In this document: positions 44,727 through 64,000 of the stretch, one piece after another
Position numbering within the stretch: the first letter of the stretch is position 1
Layout: each line of letters opens with the position of its first letter
DNA from: Spirochaetia bacterium
GTDB lineage: Bacteria > Spirochaetota > Spirochaetia > UBA9216
Length of the DNA stretch: 64,000 bases
Reading direction: 5' to 3'
Assembly (NCBI GenBank): GCA_963677925.2
Contig: CAXXYH010000003.1
Span: 1,792,001 to 1,856,000 of the forward strand
The notes under the pieces: model-generated
Seen by the model: the letters and a program-made list of their open reading frames with translations, nothing else
Database searches by the model: none
What the model was told of the DNA's origin: nothing
Made by a program: the position numbers and the translations under genes

Positions 44727-44793
44727 ACAGTATTTAAACCCGTATTTATCCCTATTGATTGAAATCAGGACTTTAAAATACGAGAATTAAAGT

Positions 44794-45207: not shown

Positions 45208-45220
45208 ACGCTTAAGGATC

Positions 45221-45254
45221 AAAAAAGGCTGCCCAAATCGCGGACAGCCTTTTT
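45221..45254. terminator. Bidirectional intrinsic terminator
   Basis: AAAAAAGGCTG..CAGCCTTTTT. Confidence 0.85.
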
Positions 45255-45296
45255 AGTTTGAGCCGTATATATACACGACTTCAGCTTCGTTCTGCT

Positions 45297-46256: not shown

Positions 46257-46843
46257 CAGGCCAGTTCACTCCTGCTGCTAATTACCTTTGATATAAGTCC
46301 GTACTCCACTGAATCCAAAGCATTGAGCCAGTAGTCACGGTCAGTATCCTTCTCTACTCTATCAAGCGACTGGCCGGTTTCATCGGCGATAAGCTGATTC
46401 AGCTTCTGCCTGGTTTTCTCAAGTTCCTTAGCGTGAATTTCAATCTCGGTTGCAACGCCGCGCATACCGGAAAGTGGCTGGTGGATCAGGTAGTGGGAAT
46501 TGGGAAGACCGAGTCTTCTCTCCTTCGGTGCGGCAAGCAGGATAAGTGCTCCCGCACTGGCAACCAGCCCCATTCCAACTGTATAAACATCCGGTTTTAC
46601 AAATCTGATCATATCGAAAATTGCATAGCCTGCATCAACGTCACCGCCGGGAGAGTCAATGAAAACCTTGATTGGCTCATCGCTTTCGGCTTCAAGAATT
46701 AGAAGCTGTTTTACAACCTTTTCAGCAAGCTCCTTGTTTACTTCTCCGGAAAGCAGAATTGTTCTTGTCTTCAGTATTTTTTCAGATACCGCATCAGGAT
46801 TTTCCGCTTTATCCTTACTGCATTCTCTTTCTTCTTCACTCAT
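46256..46843 (-). CDS. clpP: ATP-dependent Clp protease proteolytic subunit (start revised to MSEEER)
   Basis: FIDSPGG, GLVASAG, LIHQP, DTDRDYW; AGGAG SD before ATG at 46843. Confidence 0.93.
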   Translation of the reverse strand: MSEEERECSKDKAENPDAVSEKILKTRTILLSGEVNKELAEKVVKQLLILEAESDEPIKVFIDSPGGDVDAGYAIFDMIRFVKPDVYTVGMGLVASAGALILLAAPKERRLGLPNSHYLIHQPLSGMRGVATEIEIHAKELEKTRQKLNQLIADETGQSLDRVEKDTDRDYWLNALDSVEYGLISKVISSRSELA

Positions 46844-46921
46844 AAAAATAACTACTCCTGTTTTTATGTAACATGATGCAAAGCCTCTTGTCAATTGTAT
46901 AGAATTTACTACAATTAGCAA

Positions 46922-47815
46922 ATGAAGTCAGCATATATATCCATTATAGGACGGCCTTCTGCCGGAAAATCGACCCTAATAAACAGCATCTGCGGTGAAA
47001 AAGTCTCAATAGTATCACCGGTACCTCAAACTACCAGAAATAAAATCCGCGGAATTATAACCAGAGACGAAGGCCAGCTGGTTTTCATAGATACTCCCGG
47101 ATACCATATTTCGGACAAAAAGTTCAACAATTACCTGAAAGACCTTGCAGGATCGGCAGTAGAAGATGCAGATCTATTTCTATATGTAATAGATACAGCC
47201 AGAAAACCCGGAGCTGAAGAGAAGGAAGTTCTTTCCATGCTGGAACCCTACTTCGACAGGACGATAGTTGCATTGAATAAAACCGATCTGCCCGAATCAA
47301 AGCCTCAGGAAATAGTAGATTTCATCGGGGAAACCGCAGGTTCACATCCTGCAGGTATGATAGGGATTTCTGCTGAAAAGGGAACCAATGTTGAAGACAT
47401 ACTCAAAGCCCTTTTTGAACTGGCACCGGAAGGCTTTCCCCTGTACCCGGAAGACTACTACACCGACCAGGAGCCTTCCTTCCGTATAATGGAAGTAATA
47501 CGGGAAAAGGCAATCACCGGCTCCAGACAGGAACTGCCCCACTCTATCTATGTAGATATTGCCGATATGGAGGCGGACAGGGATGAAAGCGGTGAAATCA
47601 AAAAGCTATGGGTACGTGCATTTCTTACTGCAGAAAGAGATAGCCAGAAAGGAATTCTTGTAGGACGCGGCGGAGAAAACATTAAAAGGATTCGGCTTGA
47701 AGCACAGAAGGAGCTTAACCAGCTTTTTCCCTACAGGGTAAGCCTTGATTTAAGGGTTAAGGTGAATCCAAAATGGCGGCGTAACGACGGACTGCTTAAG
47801 AATATGCTGTTTTAA
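46922..47815 (+). CDS. era: GTPase Era
   Basis: GRPSAGKST, PQTTR, DTPG, NKTD, ISA; KH domain with SQKGILVGRGG. Confidence 0.96.
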   Translation: MKSAYISIIGRPSAGKSTLINSICGEKVSIVSPVPQTTRNKIRGIITRDEGQLVFIDTPGYHISDKKFNNYLKDLAGSAVEDADLFLYVIDTARKPGAEEKEVLSMLEPYFDRTIVALNKTDLPESKPQEIVDFIGETAGSHPAGMIGISAEKGTNVEDILKALFELAPEGFPLYPEDYYTDQEPSFRIMEVIREKAITGSRQELPHSIYVDIADMEADRDESGEIKKLWVRAFLTAERDSQKGILVGRGGENIKRIRLEAQKELNQLFPYRVSLDLRVKVNPKWRRNDGLLKNMLF

Positions 47816-47822
47816 GAATCTC

Positions 47823-48992
47823 TTAAGGCTGTTTATCCGAATCAGCCCTGTGCCGGTGAAAAATCCGGTAGGGGGTTTCGGGCAGAGTGTTTTCAACCAT
47901 TTTATCGTAAAGTTCCAAATCGCGCTTTCGGGCCCGGCCGCCGAGCTTGCGGATTGTCTTCAGCAGTGCAGCCACCTGCTTGCGCTGCTCAGAATTCATG
48001 TTGATGAACAGAAGTCCGTAATGGTAGAAATCTTTAACCTTTTTCTTCCATTTAACAACACCGTCTATATCAGCAGAGTCATATCCTACCGTACAGAAGA
48101 AGCCGCAGAGCTCTCCCATCTTGATATCAAGCGAGGTTTCAAGACAGGCGCCGGTGCTTGAGACATTTACGAGTTTTGCCGGGTTAATATTTCCCTGGAA
48201 GCGGAGTGAAACATTTATATTAACAGAGTAACGGCTGTACAGTCTCTTTTCCTCAGCTGATTCAACCTCGGTGATCGCGCCCACACCCAGCAGGTGAAGC
48301 ATTGCAATTATATGCTCAACCCCCTCTTTTTCTGTTTCCGAGATATTTACAAACATTATTCCGTACCCCGGAAGGCTGCAGTCATCCAGAACGCTGCGCA
48401 TTACCCGGCCTTTTAAGGCAACGGAAATACTGTTGCCCATATAGATTCTTAGGGGATAGATATGGCCTGTATCAATTTTCTCTGCGATTCTGATAAAACA
48501 ACCCCCGAGGGAGATATCTTCAAGGTAGCCCAGTTCTGCCATTCCTGCATATTCGATGGAAACACCAAGATCAATTTCGTATCTTCTGGCCTGTTCCCAC
48601 CACCTAAGCCGCGGGTTGAAATACGGCGCAATTATATGTTTTCTGAAAAAGAACCCTGCAGCAGCAAAAAGCACCAGGTTGAACATAATCATTCCGCCCA
48701 GCGAGATCATGGGATTAGCAGCATATGCTGTAATATTATAAACAATCATCGTGGCCGCAGTTACCATAAAAACCCACCACCCGGCTTTATGAACTGTATA
48801 AACGGCAACTGCTGCCAGGGGGTAGAGACATAAAATTATGATATCGGAAACTGCAAGCCTGGTAAAAATATTTCCGCGGCCCCAGAGAGGTATCATATTT
48901 ATGTAAGCATTGAGGACAACCGTCACAAGCGGAGTTAAAATAAGCAGCAGTGAAAAAAAGAGAATACTTCCGGGACGTTTCAGACTGTTCAA
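47823..48992 (-). CDS. Membrane protein with tandem PilZ domains
   Basis: About 4 TM helices; DISLGG in domain 1; RLYSR + NVSSTG in domain 2. Confidence 0.8.
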   Translation of the reverse strand: MNSLKRPGSILFFSLLLILTPLVTVVLNAYINMIPLWGRGNIFTRLAVSDIIILCLYPLAAVAVYTVHKAGWWVFMVTAATMIVYNITAYAANPMISLGGMIMFNLVLFAAAGFFFRKHIIAPYFNPRLRWWEQARRYEIDLGVSIEYAGMAELGYLEDISLGGCFIRIAEKIDTGHIYPLRIYMGNSISVALKGRVMRSVLDDCSLPGYGIMFVNISETEKEGVEHIIAMLHLLGVGAITEVESAEEKRLYSRYSVNINVSLRFQGNINPAKLVNVSSTGACLETSLDIKMGELCGFFCTVGYDSADIDGVVKWKKKVKDFYHYGLLFINMNSEQRKQVAALLKTIRKLGGRARKRDLELYDKMVENTLPETPYRIFHRHRADSDKQP

Positions 48993-49102
48993 AACGCACT
49001 CCTTTTTTAATTTACATTTAAATTATAGTATGAATATACAGGATTTTCGCTAAAAATGTCCAGAAAACTTGAATAATATTCCATCTCCACTATAATTTGG
49101 GT

Positions 49103-50341
49103 ATGAATCGAAGGCTGATTTTTTTACTTACTGTGACTGCAATCTTTTATTTTTTTATCAGCCTTTCCGGATGTTCTCTCTTCATATTAAAAGACAGCCT
49201 TACCCCTGATGAATATCTTCCGGAAGCCGTATTAATAGTAGTTGATAGTGAAGTAGCCCGGGAAACAGAAGCAAGAATTGCCGTCTATCAAAGTGATTTG
49301 AGTGCAGAAGGAGTAAGTTCTTCTGTCATAGTCTGGGAAAATTCCGACAATTACGCAGAACTCAAAGACAGACTTATTGCCTCATCAGCTGATCATACCT
49401 GCGCCTTTTTCGTTGGGAATCTTCCGGTTGCCTGGTACGAGCAGGAGGCCTTCGGCGAAGAAGAAGTATTTCCTGCAGATCTCTATTATATGGATCTTGA
49501 TTCGATCTGGTCCGACACAGACGGGGACGGATATCTTGATGAACACAGTGATATTGAGGTTGATTTCTATATTTCACGAATTACAGGCTCAGCTGAAGAA
49601 CTTAACTTCTATTTTGATAAATTATCTGCCTACCGCAGCGGAACCGGATTTATTTATGATGATGCTCTGATATTCAAGGATGATGACTGGCAGTCGAATT
49701 ACCGAAGCAACAGCCTCGGCCTTGATTCACTCTACAGCAGCGTAACAATTCTGCAGGACCCCGAAACGACCCTGAGGGAAAGCTATATAGAACAGGTTAC
49801 CGGAAACGGTTATGAGTTTGTATATCAGTGGGTACACGCCGCGCCGCCTGTTCTTTTCTTTGACGAGGGCGATACATATGATCTGATGAGAGCCAGCGAC
49901 ATAGGGGCTAACAACCTTAAAGCCAACTTCTACAATCTCTTCGACTGTCAGGCGGCCAGGTTTACCGTCAACAATCTTGCATCAAACTACCTGCTTGAAA
50001 CTGATTCAGCCATTTCCGTAGTAGGCTCGACGAAGACCGGAGGCATATACTATCCGATTGAATTCAATAAAGCGCTGGGTGAAGGGGCCTGCTGGGGAGC
50101 CGCATACAGAGTCTGGTACAACAATTCCGGATATACCGATGACAATTGGTTTCTGGGAATGATTATAATGGGTGATCCGGCAATCAGACCCTACCATGCA
50201 TCCGGAGCCGATATTGCGGAAGGCAGCAGATCTATATCTACCATTATTCCTTTAAGCGAAGAAGAAACCGACCGCATGTTCCTGCAGCTGCGTGATTTCG
50301 ACCTTGCCGAGGAATATGAAGATAAATCTGTGGATGAATAA
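49103..50341 (+). CDS. Lipoprotein, probable peptidase C25 (gingipain-like) fold; start revised to ATG at 49103
   Basis: LSGC lipobox; FFVGNLP, ADLYYMDLD, ISRI, WVHAAP, FDCQAARF, MGDP. Confidence 0.65.
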   Translation: MNRRLIFLLTVTAIFYFFISLSGCSLFILKDSLTPDEYLPEAVLIVVDSEVARETEARIAVYQSDLSAEGVSSSVIVWENSDNYAELKDRLIASSADHTCAFFVGNLPVAWYEQEAFGEEEVFPADLYYMDLDSIWSDTDGDGYLDEHSDIEVDFYISRITGSAEELNFYFDKLSAYRSGTGFIYDDALIFKDDDWQSNYRSNSLGLDSLYSSVTILQDPETTLRESYIEQVTGNGYEFVYQWVHAAPPVLFFDEGDTYDLMRASDIGANNLKANFYNLFDCQAARFTVNNLASNYLLETDSAISVVGSTKTGGIYYPIEFNKALGEGACWGAAYRVWYNNSGYTDDNWFLGMIIMGDPAIRPYHASGADIAEGSRSISTIIPLSEEETDRMFLQLRDFDLAEEYEDKSVDE

Positions 50342-50408
50342 ACGTAATTTTATTCCAGCATTAAGATCTGTTATTTGACTTTTTACAGCCCTGCTATTAT
50401 TAATAGAC

Positions 50409-51623
50409 ATGCAGAAATCATTACTTCGAAAAATCAGCCTATTGCTGCTGTTTGTAATCACCATATTCAGGCTTCCTGCCGCTGAATCAGCCTTTCCTGT
50501 AATAAATTCAGAATCGGCAATTCTTATAGACATGGGAACAGGTACAGTACTCTTTGAAAAGAATGCAGACACGGTTATTCCTCCCGCATCAATGACAAAG
50601 CTTATGACAATGCACATTGCGCTCGAAGCAGTCAAAAACGGGCAATGCAGCCTTGACGATTATGTACCGATAGGCAGGAATGCTGATTTCCGAAACCAGC
50701 CTCCCCACTCTTCGCTTATGTTTATCGAAGAAGGTCAGAAGGTAACACTTGCCGGACTGCTTACCGGACTGGCAATTCCCTCCGGTAATGATGCCGCGGT
50801 GGCTGTAGCTGACTTTATAGCCGGCAGCACCCCGGAATTTATCAGAATGATGAATGCAGAGGCGGACAGGCTTGGTCTGCTGAACACAAATTTTGATGAC
50901 ACCTCCGGATATTCAGCATATAACAGTACAACATCAAGGGAGTATGCTGAGTTCTGCAGCTACTACATAAGCGAACATCCTGAAGCACTTGAACTCTTTC
51001 ATGCAATAACCGAGTTCACCTATCCGGCAGAGAATAATCTGCCGGACAGCGGAGAAAGCGTTTACGGACCCATAACACAGTACAATCATAACCAGCTTGC
51101 CGGAAGATACCCGGGAGTCGATGGACTAAAAACCGGTTATATTGATGAATCGGGTTTTAACATAGCCGCCACCTGTATACAGAACGAAAGAAGGCTTCTT
51201 GCTGTCATTATGGGGGGCCGGGGAAAGACCACATCAGATGGAAATCTTAAAAGGCTTGTCGATGTTTCAATTCTTTTTACCTACGGTTTTGAGGCATGGA
51301 CTGTTTTCAGTCCCGGAAAAAACACTTACACCGAGATGAAGGTCTGGAAAGGAAAGCGGGATTTCGTTGCCGCCGAAAGAACAAAGGCTGATGATATATG
51401 TCTTAAATACTCTGATTTGATTGATGCCCAATACATAGACACTCCGGCAGACCTGCTCGAAGCCCCGCTATCCAGGGGTGATACGATTGGGTCATGGAAG
51501 CTTGTAGCATCCGATGGCGAAACCCTTACAGAGGGAACTCTTACAGCCATGGCTGAAATAGAAGAAGGCGGCTGGATAAAAAGAAAGCTTGATTCGTTCA
51601 GACTGCGGCGGCTTAGTAATTAG
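50409..51623 (+). CDS. D-alanyl-D-alanine carboxypeptidase (peptidase S11)
   Basis: PASMTK (SxxK), SGN (SxN), LKTG. Confidence 0.93.
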   Translation: MQKSLLRKISLLLLFVITIFRLPAAESAFPVINSESAILIDMGTGTVLFEKNADTVIPPASMTKLMTMHIALEAVKNGQCSLDDYVPIGRNADFRNQPPHSSLMFIEEGQKVTLAGLLTGLAIPSGNDAAVAVADFIAGSTPEFIRMMNAEADRLGLLNTNFDDTSGYSAYNSTTSREYAEFCSYYISEHPEALELFHAITEFTYPAENNLPDSGESVYGPITQYNHNQLAGRYPGVDGLKTGYIDESGFNIAATCIQNERRLLAVIMGGRGKTTSDGNLKRLVDVSILFTYGFEAWTVFSPGKNTYTEMKVWKGKRDFVAAERTKADDICLKYSDLIDAQYIDTPADLLEAPLSRGDTIGSWKLVASDGETLTEGTLTAMAEIEEGGWIKRKLDSFRLRRLSN

Positions 51624-51994
51624 AAAGAATCAGGAAACTTGGAGCTTAGATAACTTTTCAGGTGGGCCTTGTTTACCGGTTTTTCAAGATAACCGTCATA
51701 CGACATCGATGACAGCCGGCCGGCAAACATTTTCTCGGGATAGGCGGAGATAAAGATCACCTTTGTATCAGGATTTTCGGTCTTGATTATCTCACAGGCA
51801 TCAAGACCGTCCTCCTTTGAAGCCATATTTATATCAAGAAATGCTACATCGGGCTTGTGAGCTCTCACAGCCTTTACAACCTCAGTACCATCCTGAGCTT
51901 CGGATTGAATTTCAATTCCGAAGCCGGTAAGTGTCATTGACAGAAATACTCTGAGGATTATCTCATCATCAGCTATAACAGCTCTTAATCCCAT
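51620..51994 (-). CDS. Single-domain response regulator
   Basis: IADDE, FLDINM, ISAY, LEKP. Confidence 0.9.
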   Translation of the reverse strand: MGLRAVIADDEIILRVFLSMTLTGFGIEIQSEAQDGTEVVKAVRAHKPDVAFLDINMASKEDGLDACEIIKTENPDTKVIFISAYPEKMFAGRLSSMSYDGYLEKPVNKAHLKSYLSSKFPDSF

Positions 51995-52023
51995 GCAGGC
52001 TCCTTATGATAACAGAGAGATGT

Positions 52024-53610
52024 TTATACTCTGTATTTACCAAGTAATTTACATACTTTTTCGCTGCCGATTGCATACAGAAAACTGGCAAGCCGCGGTC
52101 CTTTTTCCTTGCCGATAAGGGCTCGGTACACAACCGGAAAAAAATCACCTGACTCAAGCCCGTTCTTCTGAGCCGCATCATAGATACTGACACTGAACTC
52201 TTTCTCGTCCAGTTTATCCATCTTTGCAGCAACTTCATCGCAGAGCATAGACAGCGCGGCGGCTTCAGCCGGACTCACTTTTTCAGCCTCTGCATCATCA
52301 TCTTTAAGGGCAAACTGAAAATCTTCGGGAGCAAAGTTTTTAACCCAGTTCCAGGCACATTCGGCACGCTGTCTGAGTCTTGCTTCCTGCTCAGGCTTTA
52401 CATCGCCAAGATACTCAATAAGCCGATCCACATCCCCAGACTGAATCTGAAGCAGATTGCATAGATGCCTTATCTGTATCTGGTAGGGCATTTCGGCTTC
52501 AGGATTTTCAAGCTGGGACAGTTCATAAATACGGGCCTGTTTTTCCCACTTTTTAAGAGCCTTCTCTGTATCCGGCTTGTTGTAATAGGTCCGTTCGCAC
52601 TTATCATAATCTTCGTAAATTTTCAGTACGTCCAAATCAAAAGATATCGCAAATTCCGCATTAGGTCTGGTTCCTGCGAATAAAAATCTTGCAACTTCGG
52701 GCTGATAGACTTCAAGCACATCATCAAGACCTACGACCTCACCTGAGGATGAGGAAATCTTTCCGCCGCGTCCCTTTATTCTGATAAAATCATACTGAAA
52801 GGTTACCGGCGGTTCCCATCCGTAAATCTCTTTAGAAACCAGTTTTGCAGTATCGAAGGAGCCTCCTTCTGAGTGGTGGTCCTTACCTGCAGGCTCAAAA
52901 TCAACCTGCTCTTCACGCCATCTCATCGGCCAGTCTATTCGCCAGGGAAGTTTCACGGCCCCTGTTTCACGAAGGTCGAGACTCTCATGGTTTCCGCATG
53001 ATTCACATGTATATGTAATTTCCCAGTCACCGTTCCAGGATTCAACTTTGGTTGTATCACGGTTGCATGCAGCACAGAATACACTTACCGGCATCCAGTC
53101 GGCGGCCAGAGGTTCGGTTCTGTGAGCATCCAGTATTTTCCGGATTGATTCTTTCTTTTCAAGAGCGGTCCGCATGCCCTGTGCATAACGGCCGGATTTA
53201 TATTCAGAAGTCTGGTATATGTACTCAGGGAAAACGCCTACAAGGGGGAGAAGAACTTCAAGCCTTTTCTCATTTGCCCGGGCGTAGCTCTCTTCGTTTC
53301 CAAGAACATCAGGGACCGTAGTTATGGGCTGACGAAGAAAGCCTTCAAGCTTTTCCTGCTCAGGCATATTTTTCGGAACCTTGCGGAAAACATCATATTC
53401 ATCCCATGAGTAGATAAACTTCACATTGCAGCCCTTCTGTCTGAGAGCACGAACAACAAGTTCTACAGAGATGATTTCCCTGAAATTTCCAATGTGAACT
53501 GTTCCGGAAGGGGTGATTCCCGAGGCGCAGACGTAGACATCCTTATCGCCTTTTTCTCTGATTATCTTATAGGCGGTAATATCCGCCCAGTGCGTAGATT
53601 GTATATTCAT
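52024..53610 (-). CDS. lysS: Class I lysyl-tRNA synthetase
   Basis: HWAD, SGITPSGTVHIGNFRE, KLPWRIDWPMRW, EPAGKDH, KISSS, GPRLASF. Confidence 0.96.
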   Translation of the reverse strand: MNIQSTHWADITAYKIIREKGDKDVYVCASGITPSGTVHIGNFREIISVELVVRALRQKGCNVKFIYSWDEYDVFRKVPKNMPEQEKLEGFLRQPITTVPDVLGNEESYARANEKRLEVLLPLVGVFPEYIYQTSEYKSGRYAQGMRTALEKKESIRKILDAHRTEPLAADWMPVSVFCAACNRDTTKVESWNGDWEITYTCESCGNHESLDLRETGAVKLPWRIDWPMRWREEQVDFEPAGKDHHSEGGSFDTAKLVSKEIYGWEPPVTFQYDFIRIKGRGGKISSSSGEVVGLDDVLEVYQPEVARFLFAGTRPNAEFAISFDLDVLKIYEDYDKCERTYYNKPDTEKALKKWEKQARIYELSQLENPEAEMPYQIQIRHLCNLLQIQSGDVDRLIEYLGDVKPEQEARLRQRAECAWNWVKNFAPEDFQFALKDDDAEAEKVSPAEAAALSMLCDEVAAKMDKLDEKEFSVSIYDAAQKNGLESGDFFPVVYRALIGKEKGPRLASFLYAIGSEKVCKLLGKYRV

Positions 53611-53679
53611 AGTGGAGCAAGTATACCGGCTGGGTACAAAAATATCAATCCACAGCCGCCCGCTGCCGATAATTGAACT

Positions 53680-54318
53680 ATGAACAGACCGGCGTTTTTC
53701 ATCTGCATTTTAACAATATTCATCATTTTTTCAGGCACGGTTTCGGCTTCTGAAACAGGGCAGGCGTCCTGGTACGGAGGCAAATTTCAGGGACGGCAGA
53801 CAGCCAACGGCGAGATTTTTGATACAAACAAGCTGACTGCCGCACACAAAACCCTGCCGTTTGGAACTGTTGTTAAGGTAACAAACCTCCATAATAACAA
53901 GAGCGTAGAGGTGAGAATAAACGACCGGGGACCCTTTATTGAGGGCAGAATTATCGATCTGTCAAAGGCCGCTGCGGATGCTATAGAGATGACAGCACGG
54001 GGTGTTGCTACTGTCAGGCTTGAAATTGTCAGCTCTCCGGCTGAAAATGCTGCAGGAACAGCTCAGATATCACCTGTCCCGTCTAAATACGAAACTGACA
54101 GCGGCTTCATAGTACAGATTGCTTCATTCTCAAAACTCGATAACGCCGAAAACACACTGAAAAAGCTCTACGGCTACGGCTTCAGCCCTGCAATAGAATT
54201 AAGCAGCAGCGGGATGTACAGAGTAATAATCAACACAGAAACCAGGGTTCAGGCGGATACTGTCTGCCGAAAACTTGCGAATTTCGGATACACAAGCCCC
54301 CTGGTAAGAAATAATTAA
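53680..54318 (+). CDS. rlpA: Septal ring lytic transglycosylase RlpA family (DPBB + SPOR)
   Basis: [37 protein letters not shown]; SPOR-like VQIASF..NA. Confidence 0.92.
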
Positions 54319-54450
54319 TATCAATCTGATATAACGGTCAGCGACTGATAATGACACAACTTCTCATTAATGATAGTTTTTTAGAACTCATATACAGTAG
54401 AAAACATTGAGATCAAATACATTAGATTTTTTTTATATAAAGGTGTTTTT

Positions 54451-57400
54451 ATGCAGAACATAGGAATTAACATTGGCTCTTCAAGCCTGAAAATTGTTAT
54501 GCTTGAAGACGGCAAAATCAGCTGGACAAGTGTTCTTCCTCATGAAGGAGATTTTGTCTCCACACTTACTAAATCACTCAGCGGCAGAGACATTGCACCC
54601 GATGCAACAGCCCTGGTAACAGGAACTGAAGGCCGCTACCTTTTCAATATCAAGAGTACAATTGAGACTGTATGTATTGAAAGCGCTCTGAACCAGATTG
54701 GGCACAAGGTAAATGCAGTGGTCAGCATGGGCGGTGAAGATCTGACGGTCTACACTATAGATGAGAATAACAAGATTCAGAACAACTTCACAGGAAGTAA
54801 ATGTGCTTCAGGAACCGGCGAGTTCTTCAAGCAGCAGCTTGGACGAATGGACATGGTTCTCTCTGATGTAGAGAATGTTGATGAGAATGCAAAGGTTCTT
54901 TCTCTGTCATCAAGATGTTCAGTTTTCATGAAGAGTGACTGTACACACCGGCTTAACAAGAGAGAAGCCACAAAGGATGATATCGTTCTTTCTCTAAGCG
55001 ATGTAATGGCCACTAAAGTAATCGACTTCCTCAACAGGGCAAAGATTAAGGACGGAAAGGTTCTTCTTGCCGGAGGAATCACACTTAACAAGTTCATTGT
55101 AAGCTTCATCAAAGAAAAGGCTCCCGGAATCGAGTTTATCGTACCCGAAGAAGCCCCCTACTTTGAAGCCTACGGCGCAGCCCTTCTTGCAGGCGAAAAC
55201 GGAAGCAAGATGCCGGCTGTTGAAAAGCTGCTGAAGGACAATGTTATCAAATTCCCCCGCTATGACAAGCTTTCAAGCGTGATGGACAAGGTAACATACT
55301 TCGAAGCCGAAGTCGGCAAGGTTGAAGCAGGAAAGGAATACATCCTCGGTGTAGACGGCGGTTCAACAACAACCAAGGCCTGTCTTATCGATATTGAAAC
55401 TGATCAGATTGTTGCACAGCATTACGGACGAACCCATGGAGACCCTGTTAAGGCTCTCAAGGGCTGTATCGTTGAACTTCAGAAGAAGATTAAGGAAGAT
55501 ATCGGTGATGAGAAGATTAAAATCAGTCTTGCCTCAACAACCGGGTCTTCACGAGAGATTCTCGGTGTTTTTCTTGAAACATCAGGTGTTTACAACGAGA
55601 TTATTGCTCATGCATACGGAACAACCTTCTTTGCCGAAGATGTAGATACAATCTTCGAAATCGGCGGGCAGGATGCAAAATACGTACTTCTCAATCATAA
55701 GGTACCTATCGATTATGCTATGAACGAGGCATGTTCTGCAGGAACAGGCTCCTTCCTAGAAGAATCAGCATCAGGCGATCTCAACATCAGAAGCGCTGCC
55801 GACATAGGTGACATCGCAATCAAGGCTGAAAGACCGCTGAAGTTCGGCGAGCACTGTTCTGCATTTATCAATTCAGACATCAGAAAGGCTATCCAGCAGG
55901 GAGCCCTTCGTGAAGATATTACAGCGGGTATTGTTACCTCAATTGTTTCAAACTACCTCAACCGCGTAGTTGGAAACAGAACAATAGGAAACAAAATCTT
56001 CCTCCAGGGCGGTGTTGCTAAGAACAAGGCAATTCCGCTGGCATTTGCAATGATGGTAGGAAAAGAGATTCTGGTTCCCCCGTCCCCTGAACTTATGGGA
56101 TGTTTCGGTGTAGGTCTTCTTGCAAAGCAGAAACTTGCCGAGGGACTTCTTGAAAAATCAGAATTCGATCTCGATGCAATACTCGAGACAGAAATTGTCT
56201 ACGAAAAGCAGTTCAGATGCAAGGCATGTGACAATGACTGTCCGATTCAGGTGCTTCAGGTTAACGGTCACAAGTACATGTTCGGCGGACGCTGTTCAAA
56301 ATACACAAACAGCAGAAAGAAGATTGAGACAAGCACCGAGACTGTAGACTTTGTACAGAGACGTTCAGACCTTAACTTTGTTGAGTGCGCCGCTGATCCT
56401 GAAACCTTCGTACAGAAAAGAGATTACACAGTGGGTATTCCAAGGGCCTTCTCGGTTCATTCGCTATACCCGCTTTACTCATGGTTCTTCCATACACTCG
56501 GAATTAAAACCGTGCTTTCAGATGAAATTGCACATGAGGGTATTGCAAGAGCGGAAAGTACTTACTGCTTTCCGGCGGAAATTGCGCACGGAGCAGTTCA
56601 GGACATCATCAACAAGGGCTGTGACTACATCTTCCTGCCTCACTTCAGGGATATGACCAGCTATGAAACCGATGTCCACGCTAACTTCTGTCCTATCACG
56701 CAGGGTCTTCCCTACTACATCAAGAAAGCATTCCCGGATGTTGCCGAGAACAAGATTCTTGAACTTGTAGTTTCCTTCAAATTCGGAAAAGACAAGGCTC
56801 TTGAACTGTTCCAGAAGTTCGGCAAGCAGCTTGATATCAGCGAGGGCGAAATCAAGAAGGCTTTCAACGTTGCCGTTCAGAAACAGGAAGCCTTCCTGCT
56901 CAAGCTTAAAGAACTGGGACTTGAGGCTCTTGAGTTTGCAAGAAACAGCGACAAGCCTGTTATTGCCCTTCTTGGACGTCCCTACAACGCATTCACCCGC
57001 GAAGCAAACATGGGTATCCCCAAGAAATTTACATCAAAGAACTTTACAGTAATTCCGTTCGACATTCTGCCGTACGAGAATGAAGAGATATACGACAACA
57101 TGTACTGGTACTACGGTCAGCAGGACATGAAGTCGGCAAGACTCATCAAGCAGGAAGACAACATCTATGCAGCATGGATTTCAAACTTCTCATGCGCGCC
57201 TGACTCCTTCATGCTCCACTACCTCAAGTGGATTATGGGAAGAAAGCCCTTCCTCGTTCTTGAACTTGACTCACACTCTGCAGACGCCGGTGTCGACACC
57301 CGTGTTGAGGCCTTTCTTGATATTATTGAAGGATACAGAAGCAAGTTTGAAGATGTTGAGCAGGAAAGATACGACAACGGACTGCGGTTCAGAAACGAAG

Positions 57401-58788
57401 ACAGCCTTTATATTGAAAACATCCACAGCGGCGAGAAGTTCCCGGTTATAAACAGCGACCGAGTTGAGCTGATTGTTTCAAACATGGGTGAGATTGCATC
57501 TGAACTGGTAGCAACTGCGCTCACAGCACAGGGTTTCAACGCCAAGTCGATGCCTGTAGCCGATGCTAAAACTCTTGAATACGCAAGAAACTACTGCTCG
57601 GGCAAGGAATGTGTTCCGTCCCAGCTGGTTCTAGGCGGCGCACTCAAGTTCATGGCATCCAAAGAGTTCAGAAAGGACAAGATTTACGCGCTGTTCGTAC
57701 CGATCACAACAGGACCCTGCCGAACCGGTCAGTACTATGTTTTCTATGAAAACCTCTTTCGGGACCTGAAGATTGACAACGTAGTTGTATTCACACTCAG
57801 TGCAGACAACTCATATAACGAGCTAGGTCCCGGCTTCTCTCAGTACGCATGGAAGGCGATCACAGCTTCAGACTACCTGAAGGACGTACAGACAACCCTC
57901 CGGGCCTGTGCCGAAGATCCCGCAGCCGCCATGATTGAATACAAAAAATCCTGGAAGAAGGTTGTGAAATCTGTAGGTGAAGATCTTAAGTCTCTCTACC
58001 CTGCCCTTGAAGTAATGGGTAAGGAAATGGCAACTATCCCGCTGAAGAAGAATCCGCTTGAATGCCCGAAGGTACTTGTAGTTGGTGAAATCTTTGTTCG
58101 ACGTGATGACTTTGCTGTAGACGAGCTTATTGAAAACTTTGCCCGAAAGGGAATAATTGCCAAGGTATCAAGTATTGCGGAATGGATTCACTATACCGAC
58201 TTCGTCCGTGACTATGACATCAAGAAGAGAATCAAGCTTAAGCCCTTCCTTTTCAGACCGTTCACAAAAGAATTCAGAACCTGGGTTTACTACCAGATTG
58301 AAAAGAAATGGAAGGCATCGATGGAACACAAGGCAAAGCATGCTCTTAATGTGAATAACCTTGTCCCCTCAGCTCCGCATGACATGAACAGAATCATGAA
58401 AACTGTAGAGGAAGAGTTTGTCAACCTTGAGCTCAACTCTGAAATTGCAGTTTCTTCAGGTTCCGCTGCAACTGCTATGGAAGAAGGCTACTCGGGTGTT
58501 GTAAACATTTCACCCTTTGCATGTCTTATCGGACGTGTAATTCAGGGAATCTATACTCCATGGGCACGTGAGAGAAACTTCCCGACAATGTCGGTAGAGG
58601 TAGACGGAAACATGCTTCCGCCGAATATTCTCAACCAGCTTAACATCTTCATGCTGAACGTTCTTAGATTCAAGCATGATATGGATATCAAAGACCTTGT
58701 TGACGACAGCGATACTGTCTACAGCTCCGGCCTTGCCGGAATGATGGGATCCGACTCTGAAGAGAAGGAACTTGTTAACCAGAAATAA
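54451..58788 (+). CDS. Multidomain acyl-CoA dehydratase-activase / reductase fusion (2x ASKHA activase + reductase modules; PlsA/Ger-like)
   Basis: INIGSSS..MGGED..KCASGTG..SRCSVF; VDGGSTTTK..EIGGQDAK..MNEACSAGTG..EHCSAF; CKACDNDC..GGRC; YCFP, NFCP, NFSCAPD, GKECVP, GPCRTGQY, SPFACL. Confidence 0.85.
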   Translation: MQNIGINIGSSSLKIVMLEDGKISWTSVLPHEGDFVSTLTKSLSGRDIAPDATALVTGTEGRYLFNIKSTIETVCIESALNQIGHKVNAVVSMGGEDLTVYTIDENNKIQNNFTGSKCASGTGEFFKQQLGRMDMVLSDVENVDENAKVLSLSSRCSVFMKSDCTHRLNKREATKDDIVLSLSDVMATKVIDFLNRAKIKDGKVLLAGGITLNKFIVSFIKEKAPGIEFIVPEEAPYFEAYGAALLAGENGSKMPAVEKLLKDNVIKFPRYDKLSSVMDKVTYFEAEVGKVEAGKEYILGVDGGSTTTKACLIDIETDQIVAQHYGRTHGDPVKALKGCIVELQKKIKEDIGDEKIKISLASTTGSSREILGVFLETSGVYNEIIAHAYGTTFFAEDVDTIFEIGGQDAKYVLLNHKVPIDYAMNEACSAGTGSFLEESASGDLNIRSAADIGDIAIKAERPLKFGEHCSAFINSDIRKAIQQGALREDITAGIVTSIVSNYLNRVVGNRTIGNKIFLQGGVAKNKAIPLAFAMMVGKEILVPPSPELMGCFGVGLLAKQKLAEGLLEKSEFDLDAILETEIVYEKQFRCKACDNDCPIQVLQVNGHKYMFGGRCSKYTNSRKKIETSTETVDFVQRRSDLNFVECAADPETFVQKRDYTVGIPRAFSVHSLYPLYSWFFHTLGIKTVLSDEIAHEGIARAESTYCFPAEIAHGAVQDIINKGCDYIFLPHFRDMTSYETDVHANFCPITQGLPYYIKKAFPDVAENKILELVVSFKFGKDKALELFQKFGKQLDISEGEIKKAFNVAVQKQEAFLLKLKELGLEALEFARNSDKPVIALLGRPYNAFTREANMGIPKKFTSKNFTVIPFDILPYENEEIYDNMYWYYGQQDMKSARLIKQEDNIYAAWISNFSCAPDSFMLHYLKWIMGRKPFLVLELDSHSADAGVDTRVEAFLDIIEGYRSKFEDVEQERYDNGLRFRNEDSLYIENIHSGEKFPVINSDRVELIVSNMGEIASELVATALTAQGFNAKSMPVADAKTLEYARNYCSGKECVPSQLVLGGALKFMASKEFRKDKIYALFVPITTGPCRTGQYYVFYENLFRDLKIDNVVVFTLSADNSYNELGPGFSQYAWKAITASDYLKDVQTTLRACAEDPAAAMIEYKKSWKKVVKSVGEDLKSLYPALEVMGKEMATIPLKKNPLECPKVLVVGEIFVRRDDFAVDELIENFARKGIIAKVSSIAEWIHYTDFVRDYDIKKRIKLKPFLFRPFTKEFRTWVYYQIEKKWKASMEHKAKHALNVNNLVPSAPHDMNRIMKTVEEEFVNLELNSEIAVSSGSAATAMEEGYSGVVNISPFACLIGRVIQGIYTPWARERNFPTMSVEVDGNMLPPNILNQLNIFMLNVLRFKHDMDIKDLVDDSDTVYSSGLAGMMGSDSEEKELVNQK

Positions 58789-58812
58789 GCTGATCTATTT
58801 TTAAAACACTGG

Positions 58813-58850
58813 GAGCTGACTAAGAACTATTCTTAGCCGGCTCTTTTTTT
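58813..58850 (+). terminator. Intrinsic terminator
   Basis: GAGCTGACTAAGAA-cta-TTCTTAGCCGGCTC-T7. Confidence 0.88.
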
Positions 58851-58984
58851 ATGGCATAAATCAATGTTTTACAAACCAGACCGGTCCTGCCGACACTTTT
58901 GCAGCCGTTTTTAACGTAAAATTAATACAATTTTTGTAAGAAATGGCACATTGTATATGGAATTCTCTATGAAAGAATGCTAAT

Positions 58985-59017
58985 TTAAACATACGTTTGA
59001 TTTAAACGGACGTTTAA
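58985..59017. promoter_or_regulatory. Tandem palindromic operator (candidate TetR autoregulatory site)
   Basis: TTAAAC-atac-GTTTGA and TTAAAC-ggac-GTTTAA immediately before the TetR ATG. Confidence 0.7.
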
Positions 59018-59019
59018 TT

Positions 59020-59656
59020 ATGAGTATTATAAATTTATCAACCAAGAAAAAAATACTGGATACAGCCTATGAGCTGTTTTCGGAGAACGGATATGAGGGG
59101 ACATCGGTCAGACAGCTGGCGAAAGAAGCCGATGTCAATATTTCACTGATTGGATACTACTTCGGCGGTAAGGAAGGACTCTACCGTGAAGTTATAAACC
59201 ACAGAATAGGTGAGTTCAGCAACAACTTTGTTGCCTCAGTTCAGGATGAGAAGGATGTTAAAAAGCGGATAAGAAGGTTCTCGGAGCTGCTCCTTTCGTC
59301 TCTCATTGAATCACCTTCCATTCTTACGATAATTACAAGAGAGCTTGTGACAGGCAAAAATAATACCGCCTTTGTAACAGCCGAACTGGTAAAGAATTTT
59401 ATGATCATTTTTTAATTCCTTTTTCACAGACTCAGCCTTACCTGATCTCCTGGAACTGGATGTAACAGAAATGATCTTCGATATATTTATGGTGATAGCA
59501 CCAATCTATTTTTACAGCATAGTCAAGCCGCTTATAGATGACAATATGTTGATGGATGAACACGAAATAGAATCATTCCACGACAAACTGGTAGATCAGG
59601 CCTACGAGATGGGTCTGAAACTATATAAAAGCAATACGAAAGGCTTTACAGCATAA
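59020..59656 (+). pseudogene. TetR/AcrR-family regulator with a +1 frameshift in the T6 run at 59408-59413 (real lesion or sequencing error)
   Basis: HTH ILDTAYELFSENGYEGTSVRQLAKEADVN..YYFGGKEGL. Removing one T joins ORF 59020-59415 to ORF 59471-59656 (..MIIFNSFFTDSALPDLLELDVTEMIFD..), giving about 211 aa. Confidence 0.8.
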
Positions 59657-59672
59657 TCAAACTGGAGTCAAT

Positions 59673-62600
59673 ATGAATAACAAAACCCTCCTCGCGGGAA
59701 TAGACGTCGGTTCAACCACGGTAAAGATTGCCGTAATGGAACCGGAAACCAAAGAAGTCGTTTTCTCAAGATATCAGAGACATAATGCGGATCAGGCATC
59801 GACCGTTTACTCGATACTGACAGAGGTACATGAAAATTTTTCAGACAGAGATATCAGTCTTGCAGTCTGCGGAAGCGGAGGCCAGAGCATAGCCGAATCA
59901 CTTCAGGCATTCTTTATACAGGAAGTGGTGGCAAACTCAATAGCGATAAGAACCTTTTATGATGATGTAAGGGTTGCAATTGAGCTTGGCGGTCAGGATG
60001 CCAAGGTTATATTTTTCAGGCATGATGAAGAAAGCGACAGCCTGGTGGTACATGACATGAGGATGAACGGAAGCTGTGCGGGCGGTACTGGGGCATTTAT
60101 CGATCAGGTGGCCGAGCTTCTGCATGTAACACCCGAACAATTCGGGGCACTTGCTGCCGCCGGAACTGAGGTTTATTCCATTTCAGGCCGATGCGGCGTA
60201 TTCGCAAAGACTGATATTCAGCCGCTTTTAAACCAGGGCGTATCAAAGGAAGACATTGCACTTTCCTCATTTCACGCTATTGCAAAGCAGACCATAGGCG
60301 GCCTTGCCCAGGGTATGGAGATTAGGCCGAAGGTAATATTTGAGGGCGGTCCGCTTACATTCAACCCGCGTCTTATTGAAGTATTCAAGGAACGACTTAA
60401 CTTAAGTGATGCGGATACAATTATCCCGGACAACCCTGAAATTATTGTTGCCGTCGGTGCAGCCCTTTCTATTGAAGCCATGTTCAGCGGTAAGGAAGAC
60501 CTTTACAAAAACGGCGCCAACCTTGAGAAAATCCTTTACAGGCAGGCAACCGGTATACTTGAACAGGACAAGGAACTGCCTTTCTTCTACGACACCGACG
60601 AAATGAACCTGTTCAGAGAGGAGCGAAGGCTTCCGGATTTTACCCCAAAGGCATGGGAGCCCGGTACAATACTGCCTGTATACATTGGTATGGATGCCGG
60701 TTCTACAACAAGTAAATTTATTCTAATGACCGAAGATGAGGAAATTGTCGATATCTTCTACGCCAATAACCAGGGGGATCCCCTCACAATTATCAAGGAA
60801 GCTCTTACACAGATGTATGAAAAATACATCGGCATGGGCGTTGCGCTTGAGATCAGGGGAATGGGAAGTACCGGCTATGGCGAGCTGCTTTTCAACAAGG
60901 CTTTCAAGGGAGACTACCATACTGTAGAAACAGTAGCGCACGCGGAAGCGGCAAAGAAGTATGCGCCCAACGTAAGTTTTATTCTTGATATCGGCGGACA
61001 GGATATGAAGGCTATCTACGTCAATGACGGCGTAGTTACCGGAATAGTTTTAAACGAGGCCTGTTCGGCAGGCTGCGGTTCCTTTATTGAGACCTACGCT
61101 AAGAGCCTTGGCGTAAAGGTTCAGGATATAGCCGACATCGCCTTTCAGGCCGGAAGTCCGTCAAAGCTCGGATCAAGATGTACCGTTTTTATGAACAGCT
61201 CAATTATTACCGAACAGAAAAACGGCAAGAGCACCGGCGACATCCTTGCAGGAATTTCCCGATCAATTATTGAGAACGTATTTACCAAGGTTATCAGAAT
61301 GTCAAACCTTGAATCTTTGGGCGAGTGTATTGTGGTACAGGGAGGAACCTTCAAAAACGATGCGGTTCTCAGAAGCCTCGAGCAGTACACCGGAAAGCAG
61401 GTTGTAAGACCGCCGCATCCGGGAGAGATGGGAGCTATCGGTATTGCCCTGCTTACAAAAAAGTATATAGCCCGTCAGGAAGAAAAGACCGGCAGGAAAT
61501 ACCAGAGCACTTTTATAGGGACTGGAAAATATTGAAGCCTTCAGTTTTACTAAAAAAGCAGGTCAGGTCTGCAGCTTCTGTTCAAACAACTGTAACCGGA
61601 CGATAATCGAATTTAACAACGGAAGCAGACATGTAACCGGAAACCGCTGTGAAAAGGGAGAGGTCTTCGGCGATGTCAGGGAGAAGTCTGTTAAGGACAG
61701 ACTGAAAGAGGTTAACGGCAGACTTAATGCTGTGCCAGACATGATCAAGCTTCAGAATAAGCTTCTTGTAATGGATTATGCTCCGGAGCAGAAGGCTGTA
61801 ACCCAGGGAATCACCATAGGGATTCCGAGAACCCTTGAGTTCTGGAACTCTCTTCCGTTCTGGAAAAGCCTTTATACCTCGCTCGGGTTCAAGGTTGTAG
61901 TTTCCGCTCCAAGTTCGTACAAACTCTTTGAAAGCGGTCTGCAGTCTATTCCCTCCGATACAGTCTGTTTTCCGGCAAAGCTGGTACACGGACATGTTCA
62001 GGATCTGATCAGCAGGAAGGTTGATAGAATCTTCAACCCGGTACTGACCAGAATCCCTAAGGAAAATGAAAAAGCCGAAGACAGCTGCAACTGTCTAGTT
62101 GTTCAGGGCTATTCGATGGTTGTTGATGAAAGCGATACCCCTGAAGCAAAGAACGGCATCAAGTATGACAGGCCTGTCTTTCACTTCGACACCCGGAAAC
62201 TCATGGATAAGCAGATCTGCGAGTACATGAAGATAACCTTCGGCATCGATTTCAATACTACAAGGAGCGCGCTTGAAGAGGCGCATTCTATTCAGGAAGA
62301 TTACTCCGACAGGATGCAGAGAAAGGGCCGTGAGGTAATTAAAAGCCTTGAAGGCAAGGATGATTTTGCGGTTGTTCTAGCGGGCAGGCCCTACCATAAC
62401 GACCTGCTTGTGAATCACGGAATCGCCGACCATTTCAAGAAGATGGGAATTCCGGTTCTTAACCTTGAATCCATTGCCGAGATCCATGATCAGTCTTTTG
62501 ATCATGTAAGATTCGACAGCCTGATAGCCTTTCACGGCAGAATGTACTCTGCTGCAAGCTTTGTTGCCGAGCATCCGAACCTTGAACTTGTTCAGATTGT

Positions 62601-64000
62601 TTCATTCGGATGCGGACATGACGCGATTATTTCAGATGAGATGGCCAGAATACTGAATGACAGAGCCGGAAAGCAGATGCTGGTTCTAAAACTCGATGAG
62701 GGTGAAAATCAGGGACCGCTTAATATCAGAATCAAATCATTTATTGAAACGGTAAAAGCAAGCAGGAGGCTTAAAAAAGACAATCCTGTAGAGCTTAAAG
62801 AATACTGCAAACCCTATGAGGTGAAGTTCGAAAAAGAAGACAAGCGAAGGACCGTACTGATCCCGACCCTGTCTCCGGCCTTTGCAAAGTATTCAGCCAA
62901 GGTTCTTGAGGCTGAAGGCTACAAGGCTGTTCCGGCCATGCTTGCCGACAGGGAAGCCATTGCCCTGGGGAAGAAATACGTCCACAACGATATATGCTAC
63001 CCGGCCCAGATCAACGTAGGCGAACTGCTGAAAACCATCAGGGATGGGAACTATAAGTCAACAGATGTTGCCATCGGACTTGCGAAGAACTGTGAAGCAT
63101 GCAGAGCCGGGCATTATGCGGGACTGGCAAGAAAAGCCCTCGATGAAGCAGGTTATGCCGATGTGCCGATCCTGACCACTGGTAAGGACACAAAGGATAT
63201 GCATCCCGGCTTCAAGGTTACGCTTAAGTTCCAGATGAACATGCTCTGGTCGATAACAATTACCGATGTTCTTGAGGAAATACGCAGGAAGATAAGACCG
63301 TACGAGGTTAACGCCGGTGAATCCGATGAACTTTTTGAACTGTATACAGATTTCATCTATGACAATATCTGCAGCAGCCGCAAAAAGGCTTTGAAGTACT
63401 TTGAACAGGCTATTGAAGCATTCAACAATGTCGAATGCGACCGGACCATCAGAAAGCCGAGGGTTGGAATTATCGGAGAAATCCTGATGAACTTCCACCC
63501 GGAATCAAATGCCAATGTAGAACGCTACCTTGAAGCCAACGGAATGGAAACAGTCTTCCCCGCCATGCATGATTTTTTCAGGCAGAGTGTTGTTATCAAG
63601 AAAGAGAAAGGCAGACGCGGGCACACATCAAATGCGTTCATGGATTACTGCCTCAACGGTCTCACCGACTATGTGTACGGTTCTGTTCACAAAAAGGTTG
63701 ATGAATACTACCGGAAGTTCAAGTTTTATGACGGCTATGGAGATGTGAAGAATCTTGCCGAAAACACTTCTGATATGATGGACATGACATACCGCGGCGG
63801 TGAGAGCTGGATGATGCCCGGAGAAGTAATAGAGCTTGCAAAGAAGGGTGTTAACTCCTTCGTATATGTTCAGCCATTCGGCTGTATGCCGAACCACATT
63901 ACCGGTCGCGGAATGATCAAGACTGTAAAGAAGAAGTTTCCTCATATTCAGATCATTGCGCTTGATTACGATCCTGATACAGCGCTTGCAAACATCGAGA
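59673..64000 (+). CDS. Second multidomain activase/reductase fusion (PlsA-like), interrupted by a +1 frameshift at GGG 61518-61520; runs off the window end
   Basis: GIDVGSTT, ELGGQDAK, MNGSCAGGTG, GRCGVFAK, NEACSAGCG, SRCTVF. After removing one G: ..FIGLENIEAF..VCSFCSNNC..GNRC..VCFPAK..SFGCGHD..HNDICYP..CEACRAG..QPFGCMPNH..LDYDPD, reading open to 64000. Confidence 0.85.

Follow-up and report, generated by a model that had tools for sequence, protein, structure and literature searches.

Organization of the locus

We analysed a window of 64,000 nucleotides from a Spirochaetia bacterium (assembly GCA_963677925.2, contig CAXXYH010000003.1, positions 1,792,001 to 1,856,000), the window being this whole stretch of DNA. 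Near its 3' end lie two large genes, here called gene 1 and gene 2, whose products resemble the plasmalogen synthase PlsA and Ger, the glycerol ester reductase; the order is gene 1, a terminator-like hairpin, a TetR-family regulator gene and gene 2, all on the forward strand (Table 1). The [FeFe]-hydrogenase, rubrerythrin and desulfoferrodoxin genes elsewhere in the window indicate that this spirochaete is an anaerobe. Considering the evidence below, we think that the locus probably comprises two PlsA/Ger family members that are not orthologues of each other, with gene 2 encoding a regulated, plasmalogen-synthase-like enzyme and gene 1 belonging to a separate lineage. As a sister-genome reference we used L001 (loci in other genomes are numbered L001 onward), from a Spirochaetia metagenome-assembled genome (MAG), which aligned to window positions 44453-64000 (19.5 kb) at 91.8% DNA identity and carried gene 1, an intact TetR gene (211 aa) and an intact gene 2 (1474 aa) in the same order.

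Table 1 Features of the gene 1-TetR-gene 2 locus (positions in the window).
Feature	Position	Strand	Description
Gene 1 upstream region	54345..54450	+	conserved in an alignment of the window, L001, L002, L004 and L005
Gene 1	54451..58788	+	intact open reading frame, 1445 aa, 161 kDa; double activase, 4-Cys linker, reductase
Terminator-like hairpin	58813..58850	+	58813-58843, 14-nt arms, 3-nt loop, then T7; just 3' of the gene 1 stop
Candidate TetR operator	58985..59017	+	imperfect palindrome TTAAACATACGTTT-N5-AAACGGACGTTTAA; ends 2 nt before the TetR ATG
TetR-family gene	59020..59656	+	two frames, 59020-59415 and 59411-59656; TetR_N E 1e-15
Gene 2, N-terminal part	59673..61520	+	two activase modules; frame runs on to a stop at 61533-61535
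Gene 2, C-terminal part	61519..64000	+	+1 frame, without a stop up to the window end; 4-Cys linker, DUF2229 and reductase modules

The region upstream of gene 1 contains a TATAAT-like box within CTGATA(TA)ATGACA, which we regard as a putative promoter, and an AAGG ribosome-binding site ahead of the ATG. The hairpin behind gene 1 was kept in L001, with a T6 tail instead of T7, although a consensus terminator scan did not list it; a search of window positions 53500-64000 against Rfam gave no match at E <= 1. Gene 2 starts 16 nt past the TetR stop; by comparison with its 1474-aa orthologue in L001, its last ~32 codons lie beyond the window end. The hairpin with its T tract and the short TetR-gene 2 gap agree with the preliminary description of this DNA, made from its letters alone, in which gene 1 was separately terminated and gene 2 stood behind the TetR gene. 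The two large proteins shared 29% identity over 609 aa in their N-terminal halves (E 3e-52) and 22% over 675 aa in their C-terminal halves (E 1e-34).

Domain architecture and conserved cysteines

Pfam placed two BcrAD_BadFG stretches and DUF2229 in gene 1 (E 2e-49 and 2e-56), two BcrAD_BadFG stretches in the first piece of gene 2 (5e-72) and DUF2229 in its second piece (1e-69), so that two BcrAD_BadFG domains (PF01869) followed by DUF2229 (PF09989) were found in gene 1, gene 2 and the intact gene 2 of L001. Together with the CxxCxxxC..GxRC linker, seen in both translations, these domains bear out the earlier observation of two ~1450-aa proteins of the same architecture, and the motifs quoted for them were all present (KCASGTG, NFSCAPD and GKECVP in gene 1; SCAGGTG, SFGCGHD and NDICYP in gene 2). 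Above its cut-off, NCBIfam gave gene 1 only a generic 'acyl-CoA dehydratase activase' domain, and the public names of relatives were only 'activase' or 'acyl-CoA dehydratase activase', as had been predicted for automated annotation. HGD-D (PF06050) matched one weak stretch per gene, far below the gathering score (E 0.058 in gene 1, 0.095 in gene 2). The published BBDH domain-string scheme, tried as a classifier, did not separate gene 1 from gene 2.

Fourteen cysteines were invariant in 42 of 42 aligned full-length family rows, of which each activase module has two, the linker four and the reductase half six (in gene 1 numbering, C118, C156, C428, C469, C590, C593, C597, C615, C706, C747, C915, C1054, C1090 and C1358); the use of this pattern to define the family derives from the same 42-row alignment, made here. 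Both genes have all 14, and by these residues both look catalytically competent. In searches of the PDB by sequence and by profile, matches were confined to the activase modules, which hit solved activators with E values of 2e-26 to 3e-12 for the single protein and down to 1e-55 for the profile.

The same module order is found in the C. perfringens pair PlsA/PlsR (CPE1194/1195) and in PlsA encoded by a single gene (E. faecalis EF1327, L. cremoris, B. longum), described as having two domains for activation and two for reduction/dehydration (PMC12838417). Ger (T. maritima Tmari_0479/AGL49404; D. alkenivorans SHJ90043) is assigned to the same family, with the BB+D architecture of the window genes (PMC13159169), and has a mass of 159 kDa compared with 161 kDa for gene 1. 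The activase modules are also like the activators HgdC, HadI and MbdQ/P of 2-hydroxyacyl-CoA dehydratase and benzoyl-CoA reductase, and a short C-terminal motif is held in common with the YjiM-type reductase of the YjiL/YjiM-type double-cubane enzymes; unlike in these systems, the activase is here duplicated and fused to its own reductase. Furthermore, the assayed members of the PlsA/Ger family act, according to the literature, on a membrane lipid ester and not on a CoA thioester.

Relatives and phylogenetic placement

Among 8000 scored candidates, 5296 relatives of gene 1 passed E <= 1e-3; the best 120 of these 5296 aligned at full length with 64-91% identity, and those with names were called 'activase' or similar and came from Spirochaet* MAGs and one Smithella. 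Cluster look-ups added Smithellaceae, Syntrophaceae, 'Deltaproteobacteria' and Wallbacteria MAGs to this lineage. Gene 2 had intact relatives at 48-56% identity at most (Spirochaetes MAGs, Spirochaeta cellobiosiphila, Haliovirga abyssi, Fibrobacter, Deltaproteobacteria). A HMMER search of 1.84 billion representatives with the gene 1 reductase half returned 3044 at E <= 1e-3 and 642 at E <= 1e-30, indicating that the family is large and deep; the ESM Atlas gave only generic 'activase' clusters.

Reference anchors were obtained by tblastn with gene 1 and the L001 gene 2 against a plasmid collection that contains mislabelled chromosomes. They comprised a Listeria monocytogenes protein of 1475 aa, the sole family member in a 2.9-Mb record, two copies in Collinsella aerofaciens (1593 and 1479 aa), and a two-gene pair in Fusobacterium animalis (975 aa + 404 aa), with further family members in Acetoanaerobium noterae, Haliovirga, Paraclostridium and others. 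According to a review, Listeria carries a pls orthologue and makes plasmalogens anaerobically (PMC9702350). Its protein shared 47%/40% identity with the Fusobacterium pair and 50-53% with Collinsella copy 1 and Acetoanaerobium, near the published values of 48-55%/41-42% for C. perfringens PlsA/PlsR against the PlsA of lactic acid bacteria (PMC12838417). On account of these plasmalogens, the single family member and the identity range, we used the Listeria group as a stand-in for PlsA and refer to it as PlsA-type. Gene 2 shared 36% identity with the Listeria protein, 34% with Collinsella copy 1, 37% with Acetoanaerobium and 38%/30% with the Fusobacterium pair (30% for the PlsR-like part); gene 1 shared only 21-27% with the same proteins.

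We built three trees of the reductase half, two with FastTree (144 and 80 rows) and one with IQ-TREE under LG+C20 (43 rows), the last leaving out the Paraclostridium long branch, any representative covering under 650 positions and, from what was left, a subsample. In the 43-row tree the four PlsA-type rows and the nine rows of the gene-2 clade were joined with full support in the Shimodaira-Hasegawa-like approximate likelihood ratio test (SH-aLRT 100) on a stem of 1.61, and the 80-row tree gave the same join (SH-like 100), stems across both trees ranging over 1.0-1.6 substitutions per site. In the 144-row tree, made before the PlsA-type rows were added, the gene-2 clade stood alone on a long stem apart from gene 1; a tree of the activase half recovered the same groups as the reductase-half trees. 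Gene 1 lay across the tree from gene 2, in a superclade with, e.g., a Vicinamibacteria protein, and two further clades (C1 and C2) comprised proteins from Aerophobetes, Brocadiia, Planctomycetota and Chloroflexota. The second Collinsella copy branched at the base of the gene-2 clade.

Forcing the gene-1 and gene-2 clades together cost 322 log-likelihood units, with p = 2e-54 in the approximately unbiased (AU) test for groups that were named after the tree had been seen. With the 22-29% identity between the two genes and the topology of the trees, this test rules out a recent tandem duplication, as the preliminary description had argued from the motifs. These results place gene 1 in a remote, highly conserved Spirochaetota/Syntrophales lineage as judged from the sequences. 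The match to PlsA/Ger that the preliminary description had drawn for both genes thus holds for the family architecture in either case, and for the grouping with PlsA-type enzymes in the case of gene 2, as a sister clade; it fails for gene 1, which groups far away.

The alignment also contained 33 columns that were invariant in the 13 rows of PlsA-type and gene-2-clade proteins, with a residue never seen there in the other 29 rows. They include positions flanking invariant cysteines (S977, N1105 and D1106), H908, H915 and H954, and an extra cysteine in activase 2 (C468). Gene 2 carries these PlsA-type derived residues, a partly circular result because the columns were defined with the gene-2 clade included, and gene 1 differs at all 33. 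Its lineage has N/G/N/E/A where PlsA-type enzymes have H/H/S/K/S, and GK instead of ND ahead of a cluster cysteine. The motif contrasts noted earlier (NFSCAPD versus SFGCGHD, GKECVP versus NDICYP) can therefore be read as clade signatures and not as noise. A further 32 columns were fixed differently between the PlsA-type enzymes and the gene-2 clade.

Conservation of the tandem arrangement

A genome scan seeded with gene 1 yielded 11 loci, L001 among them. The order lysyl-tRNA synthetase (LysRS)-RlpA-gene 1 was kept in L001, L004 and L005, and RlpA-gene 1 in L002, where the upstream open reading frame (ORF) fell outside the scan. TetR and gene 2 followed gene 1 in the window and L001 only: no second family member was found within 10 kb of gene 1 in L005-L008 and L010, nor in L002 over the 2.8 kb present there, so that the tandem was absent from all six of the other informative gene-1 loci (L003, L004 and L009 end too soon to count). 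Downstream of gene 1 we instead observed NfeD/SPFH genes in L002, and a URO-D-like gene with transporters in L005. These results suggest that the "dual locus" of the preliminary description is a chance neighbourhood in one small lineage and not a unit.

The LysRS gene beside this group (window 52024-53610, - strand) is of class I, the archaeal type (TIGR00467, 574 bits against a cut-off of 148); Pfam identified the enzyme beside RlpA and gene 1 in L004 and L005, and an ORF of the same size occupies the position in L001.

The TetR regulator and its candidate operator

The regulator follows the TetR/AcrR plan of an N-terminal helix-turn-helix and a C-terminal ligand domain in about 200 aa altogether, with the TetR_N match (Pfam) lying on 59020-59415. 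Its C-terminal part matched no Pfam family, and every NCBIfam match fell below the cut-off, giving no support for the acyl-CoA sensing proposed in the preliminary description. The 33-nt palindrome ahead of the gene matched L001 at 100%, against a variable background in the remaining spacer, and we propose it, from sequence alone, as a candidate TetR operator.

An adjacent TetR gene was present in four of the seven PlsA-type or gene-2-clade contexts that we examined, namely the window with L001, Collinsella copy 1 (upstream), Collinsella copy 2 (downstream) and Acetoanaerobium (divergent), and in none of the remaining three (Listeria, Fusobacterium, Haliovirga). Among the 26 ORFs scanned that flank gene-1 orthologues there was no TetR and no lipid gene. 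The pattern is a published one, as the pls gene of E. faecalis also has a TetR gene beside it (EF1326/EF1327; PMC9702350). The TetRs beside PlsA-type and gene-2-clade genes are not orthologous to each other, and the window TetR matched the two Collinsella TetRs by BLASTP with E values of only 1e-4 and 0.14.

In Collinsella aerofaciens the PlsA-type gene (L013:2024-7527, 1593 aa) has a TetR-like gene upstream, and the gene-2-clade gene (L019:3498-8610, 1479 aa) has a TetR/AcrR gene overlapping its 3' end. The same review remarks that such a regulator occurs in facultative, not strict, anaerobes (PMC9702350); the TetR genes beside pls-like genes in Acetoanaerobium (L015:2039-2656, - strand), Collinsella (L013:2024-2734) and the window (59020-59656) are in strict anaerobes and qualify that remark.

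Single-base insertions in the TetR gene and gene 2

Both the TetR gene and gene 2 are broken in the window by single-base insertions relative to L001: one extra T in the T6 run at 59408-59413 (TTTTC in L001) and one extra G in the run at 61518-61520. The preliminary description had proposed a frameshift in gene 2, which the comparison confirmed, and had overlooked that the TetR gene is frameshifted as well. All remaining indels in the 19.5 kb were intergenic or were compensated pairs a few bases apart.

Despite DNA divergence of ~7%, the pieces retained about 98-99% protein identity to L001, with 99% for both TetR pieces (tblastn), 98% for the N-terminal part of gene 2 (orthologue residues 1-616) and 97.7% for its C-terminal part (residues 616-1442). 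The ratio of nonsynonymous to synonymous substitution rates (dN/dS) between the window and L001 was 0.015 for gene 1, 0.029 before and 0.027 after the break in gene 2, and 0.012 and 0.059 for the two TetR pieces. The frame of gene 2 stayed open for 827 codons past the break, to the window end. The values of 0.012-0.059 in the broken genes rule out an old pseudogene and, with the intact copies in L001, point to assembly errors or very recent mutations and not to old decay.

We also asked how the break in gene 2 compares with natural splits in the family. A plsA/plsR-type split was rejected, since the +1 frame has no ATG, GTG or TTG before 61732 and the conserved 4-Cys linker would thus stay untranslated; the single ORF of gene 2 in L001 contradicts it too. 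The Fusobacterium-type split lies elsewhere, after DUF2229 (975 + 404 aa), unlike the break in gene 2. As a separate observation, ten stand-alone, reductase-only representatives of 810-890 aa (P0262, P0276, P0284, P0294, P0342, P0347, P0361, P0364, P0369 and P0355) begin at their own 4-Cys linker and span the whole reductase half, a natural activase/reductase split distinct from the Fusobacterium plsA/plsR split.

That the TetR-gene 2 module has been truly inactivated in the window strain, by recent pseudogenisation instead of mis-assembly, is a serious possibility to which we give somewhat less than even weight. Over the 19.5 kb, coding indels without compensation numbered just two, one in each of these adjacent genes, no split domain was found in the 50 other window ORFs scanned or in four neighbouring ORFs, and by our own arithmetic the chance that two random errors in 64 kb both fall inside the 5-kb module is ~0.006. 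Against inactivation stand the dN/dS of 0.027 and the open frame past the gene 2 break, and the nature of the changes: both are +1 differences in homopolymers, and a third lies in the spacer at 58844-58850 (T7 versus T6 in L001, in the terminator tail), which looks like locally poor consensus. The 19.5-kb alignment to L001 contained no +1 homopolymer difference besides these three, which cluster within 2.7 kb. Moreover, L008, another MAG, also has a split gene-1 orthologue. On balance we lean modestly toward assembly error over recent inactivation.

The gene-1 orthologue of L008 (L008:10001-14271) gave two matches that overlap (query residues 1-686 and 667-1421), and this points to a frameshift or an assembly error near 12004-12061.

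Proposed functions and alternative explanations

Members of the PlsA/Ger family are iron-sulfur enzymes that, driven by ATP, reduce the ester bond of a lipid so that an ether results. By analogy, the cysteine pair of each ASKHA activase module would hold a [4Fe-4S] cluster and inject low-potential electrons, and ATP would drive these electrons through iron-sulfur clusters into the reductase half, where the acyl ester of a membrane phospholipid would be converted to an ether. The TetR gene and gene 2 probably form a small regulated operon. The PlsA-type derived residues of gene 2 and its TetR partner point to a conditionally expressed, plasmalogen-synthase-like enzyme, most likely one that would convert the sn-1 acyl ester to a vinyl (or alkyl) ether once the repressor is relieved. 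Gene 1, which appears to be separately promoted and terminated, has no regulator beside it, is very strongly constrained and is different around its active-site cysteines; these features suggest a constitutive enzyme of a separate lineage, which probably performs a related ester reduction, with an alkyl ether (as made by Ger) or something else as product. The two genes became neighbours within one small lineage, and tandem duplication was not their origin.

Several points weigh against assigning these functions. The PlsA-type label is a stand-in for the Listeria, Collinsella copy 1, Acetoanaerobium and Fusobacterium proteins, attached through the literature and identity ranges, and the comparison set was composed of sequences other than the validated PlsA (Q8XL48/Q8XL47, Q835P9) and Ger (AGL49404, SHJ90043). 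The naming of the groups after the tree, mentioned above, lowers the weight of the AU test. Gene 2 is in the sister clade of the PlsA-type enzymes and not inside it, and the occurrence of both types in one Collinsella genome shows them to be paralogous lineages, whose products may differ. Alkyl and alkenyl products, of Ger and PlsA respectively, are described as not readable from sequence (PMC13274423; PMC11868695), and the TetR-gene 2 module may be non-functional in the window strain, both its genes being broken. Finally, a profile search with the reductase half found no solved relative in the PDB at E <= 1, and the relation to the YjiM-type double-cubane reductase that we tried with hhalign came down to a 31-column motif at 10.6% probability. 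The architecture, the cysteines, the placement in the trees, the synteny and the selection are thus shown by the data; the cofactors, substrates, products and regulation we infer, and a double-cubane cluster in the reductase half is only a guess; no paper in the literature searched joined 'double-cubane' and 'plasmalogen'.

To label the clades of the trees we used three cluster look-ups (30 proteins) and a search seeded with the Brocadiia protein P0324. The names returned were those of MAGs (Vicinamibacteria, Aerophobetes, Brocadiia, Planctomycetota, Chloroflexota, Acetothermia and Smithellaceae), with no Thermotoga or Desulfatibacillum protein and no organism with a validated enzyme among them; a composition-based pick of thermophile-like representatives contained no Thermotoga.

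A tentative alternative, which we find doubtful, is that gene 1 represents a third PlsA/Ger lineage, spread over Spirochaetota, Smithellaceae/Syntrophaceae and Wallbacteria, with a distinct constitutive ester reduction that is neither that of plasmalogen synthase nor that of Ger, and that the gene-2 clade is a second, TetR-linked PlsA paralogue that exists beside true PlsA in Collinsella. The gene 1 lineage is marked by 64-91% identity across phyla, a dN/dS of 0.015, the missing regulator and the different active-site surroundings.

The preliminary description had favoured a functional dual ether-lipid locus, with vinyl (plasmalogen) and alkyl (Ger-like) ether formation, sn-1 and sn-2 positions, or head groups divided between the two enzymes. 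Both enzymes are deeply diverged yet complete, with all 14 invariant cysteines, and the clade-specific residues adjoin cluster cysteines. The vinyl/alkyl part is a reasonable inference that is already in print for other bacteria, as the idea of one homologue being PlsA and the other Ger has been put forward for two Bacillota with two PlsA-like homologues (PMC13274423). Of 28 Spirochaetota MAGs from the Black Sea, 19 reportedly have Ger-like matches (PMC11868695). Two paralogues in one genome also recall D. alkenivorans, with Ger and the inactive Ger2 (SHK01260). On the other side, the two genes are adjacent in none of the six other informative gene-1 loci, and they have separate transcription signals. 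The sn-1/sn-2 division in particular has a negative precedent, since D. alkenivorans Ger alone made both sn-1 monoethers and diethers and Ger2, in E. coli, made none (PMC11150832). That some anaerobic spirochaetes contain plasmalogens, as the preliminary description states, was not confirmed by the literature searched. We consider such a joint function unlikely.

We hold it to be more unlikely still that the gene 1 lineage does not act on glycerolipids at all, and that it uses ATP to reduce or dehydrate some other substrate while having no more than the fused architecture in common. In its favour are the low identity of gene 1 to PlsA-type enzymes with its difference at every signature column, a neighbourhood without lipid genes among the ORFs scanned, the small-molecule-like context of a distant relative on a Paraclostridium plasmid, and the size of the family (3044 representatives), of which only a handful have been assayed (PMC13159169, PMC12838417, PMC11150832). 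Against this, the whole family, searched with T. maritima Ger and including Spirochaetes, is treated as Ger/PlsA homologues by Sahonero-Canavesi et al. (PMC13159169); gene 1 has the same 14 cysteines and domain order as the family, and the Paraclostridium protein is a long-branch outlier outside the gene-1 clade. A term search of the tables of PMC13159169 gave no spirochaete entry.

The Paraclostridium member itself (L016:2855-10666, 1282 aa, on a 109-kb plasmid of Paraclostridium bifermentans) is flanked by a Crp/Fnr regulator and by an ABC transporter with two cupins, a context that hints that some members of the family act on something other than lipids.

Neighbouring genes

Past the window end, the segment downstream of gene 2 in the sister genome (L001:19771-25878) encodes a 217-aa ORF without family match and a DUF92 membrane protein and, on the opposite strand, a UbiA prenyltransferase together with a CCG-domain protein, iron-sulfur subunit and flavoprotein that make up a fumarate-reductase-like set. 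Elsewhere in the window, the [FeFe]-hydrogenase is accompanied by partners that resemble NuoF and NuoE and by a small histidine-kinase-like ATPase (37749-42768, - strand), a cluster that looks like a bifurcating hydrogenase set, and the desulfoferrodoxin and rubrerythrin genes are at 27022-27992 (- strand). Five genes at 29508-33426 (- strand) follow the domain order NqrB, C, D, E, F (NQR2_RnfD_RnfE, FMN_bind, two Rnf-Nqr, and Fer2+FAD_binding_6+NAD_binding_1); no NqrA-like gene was present upstream of this set, the next gene there being on the opposite strand.

Significance

The novelty of the locus lies in additional members of a family already known, in a neighbourhood that is not conserved; the system itself is not of a new kind. 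A spirochaete genome with two such genes is to be expected, given the Ger-like matches in most of the Black Sea Spirochaetota MAGs and the paralogue pairs already described. Bacterial ether lipids blur the 'lipid divide' between archaea and bacteria and feed palaeoclimate proxies (brGDGTs, the branched glycerol dialkyl glycerol tetraethers), and plasmalogens affect host-microbe biology. In the locus, nature has paired two far-diverged enzymes of the family within a single anaerobe, at a time when the field regards PlsA and Ger as inseparable by sequence. Furthermore, the 33 clade-specific positions may guide mutagenesis, or may serve as a sequence signature once more enzymes of the family have been assayed.

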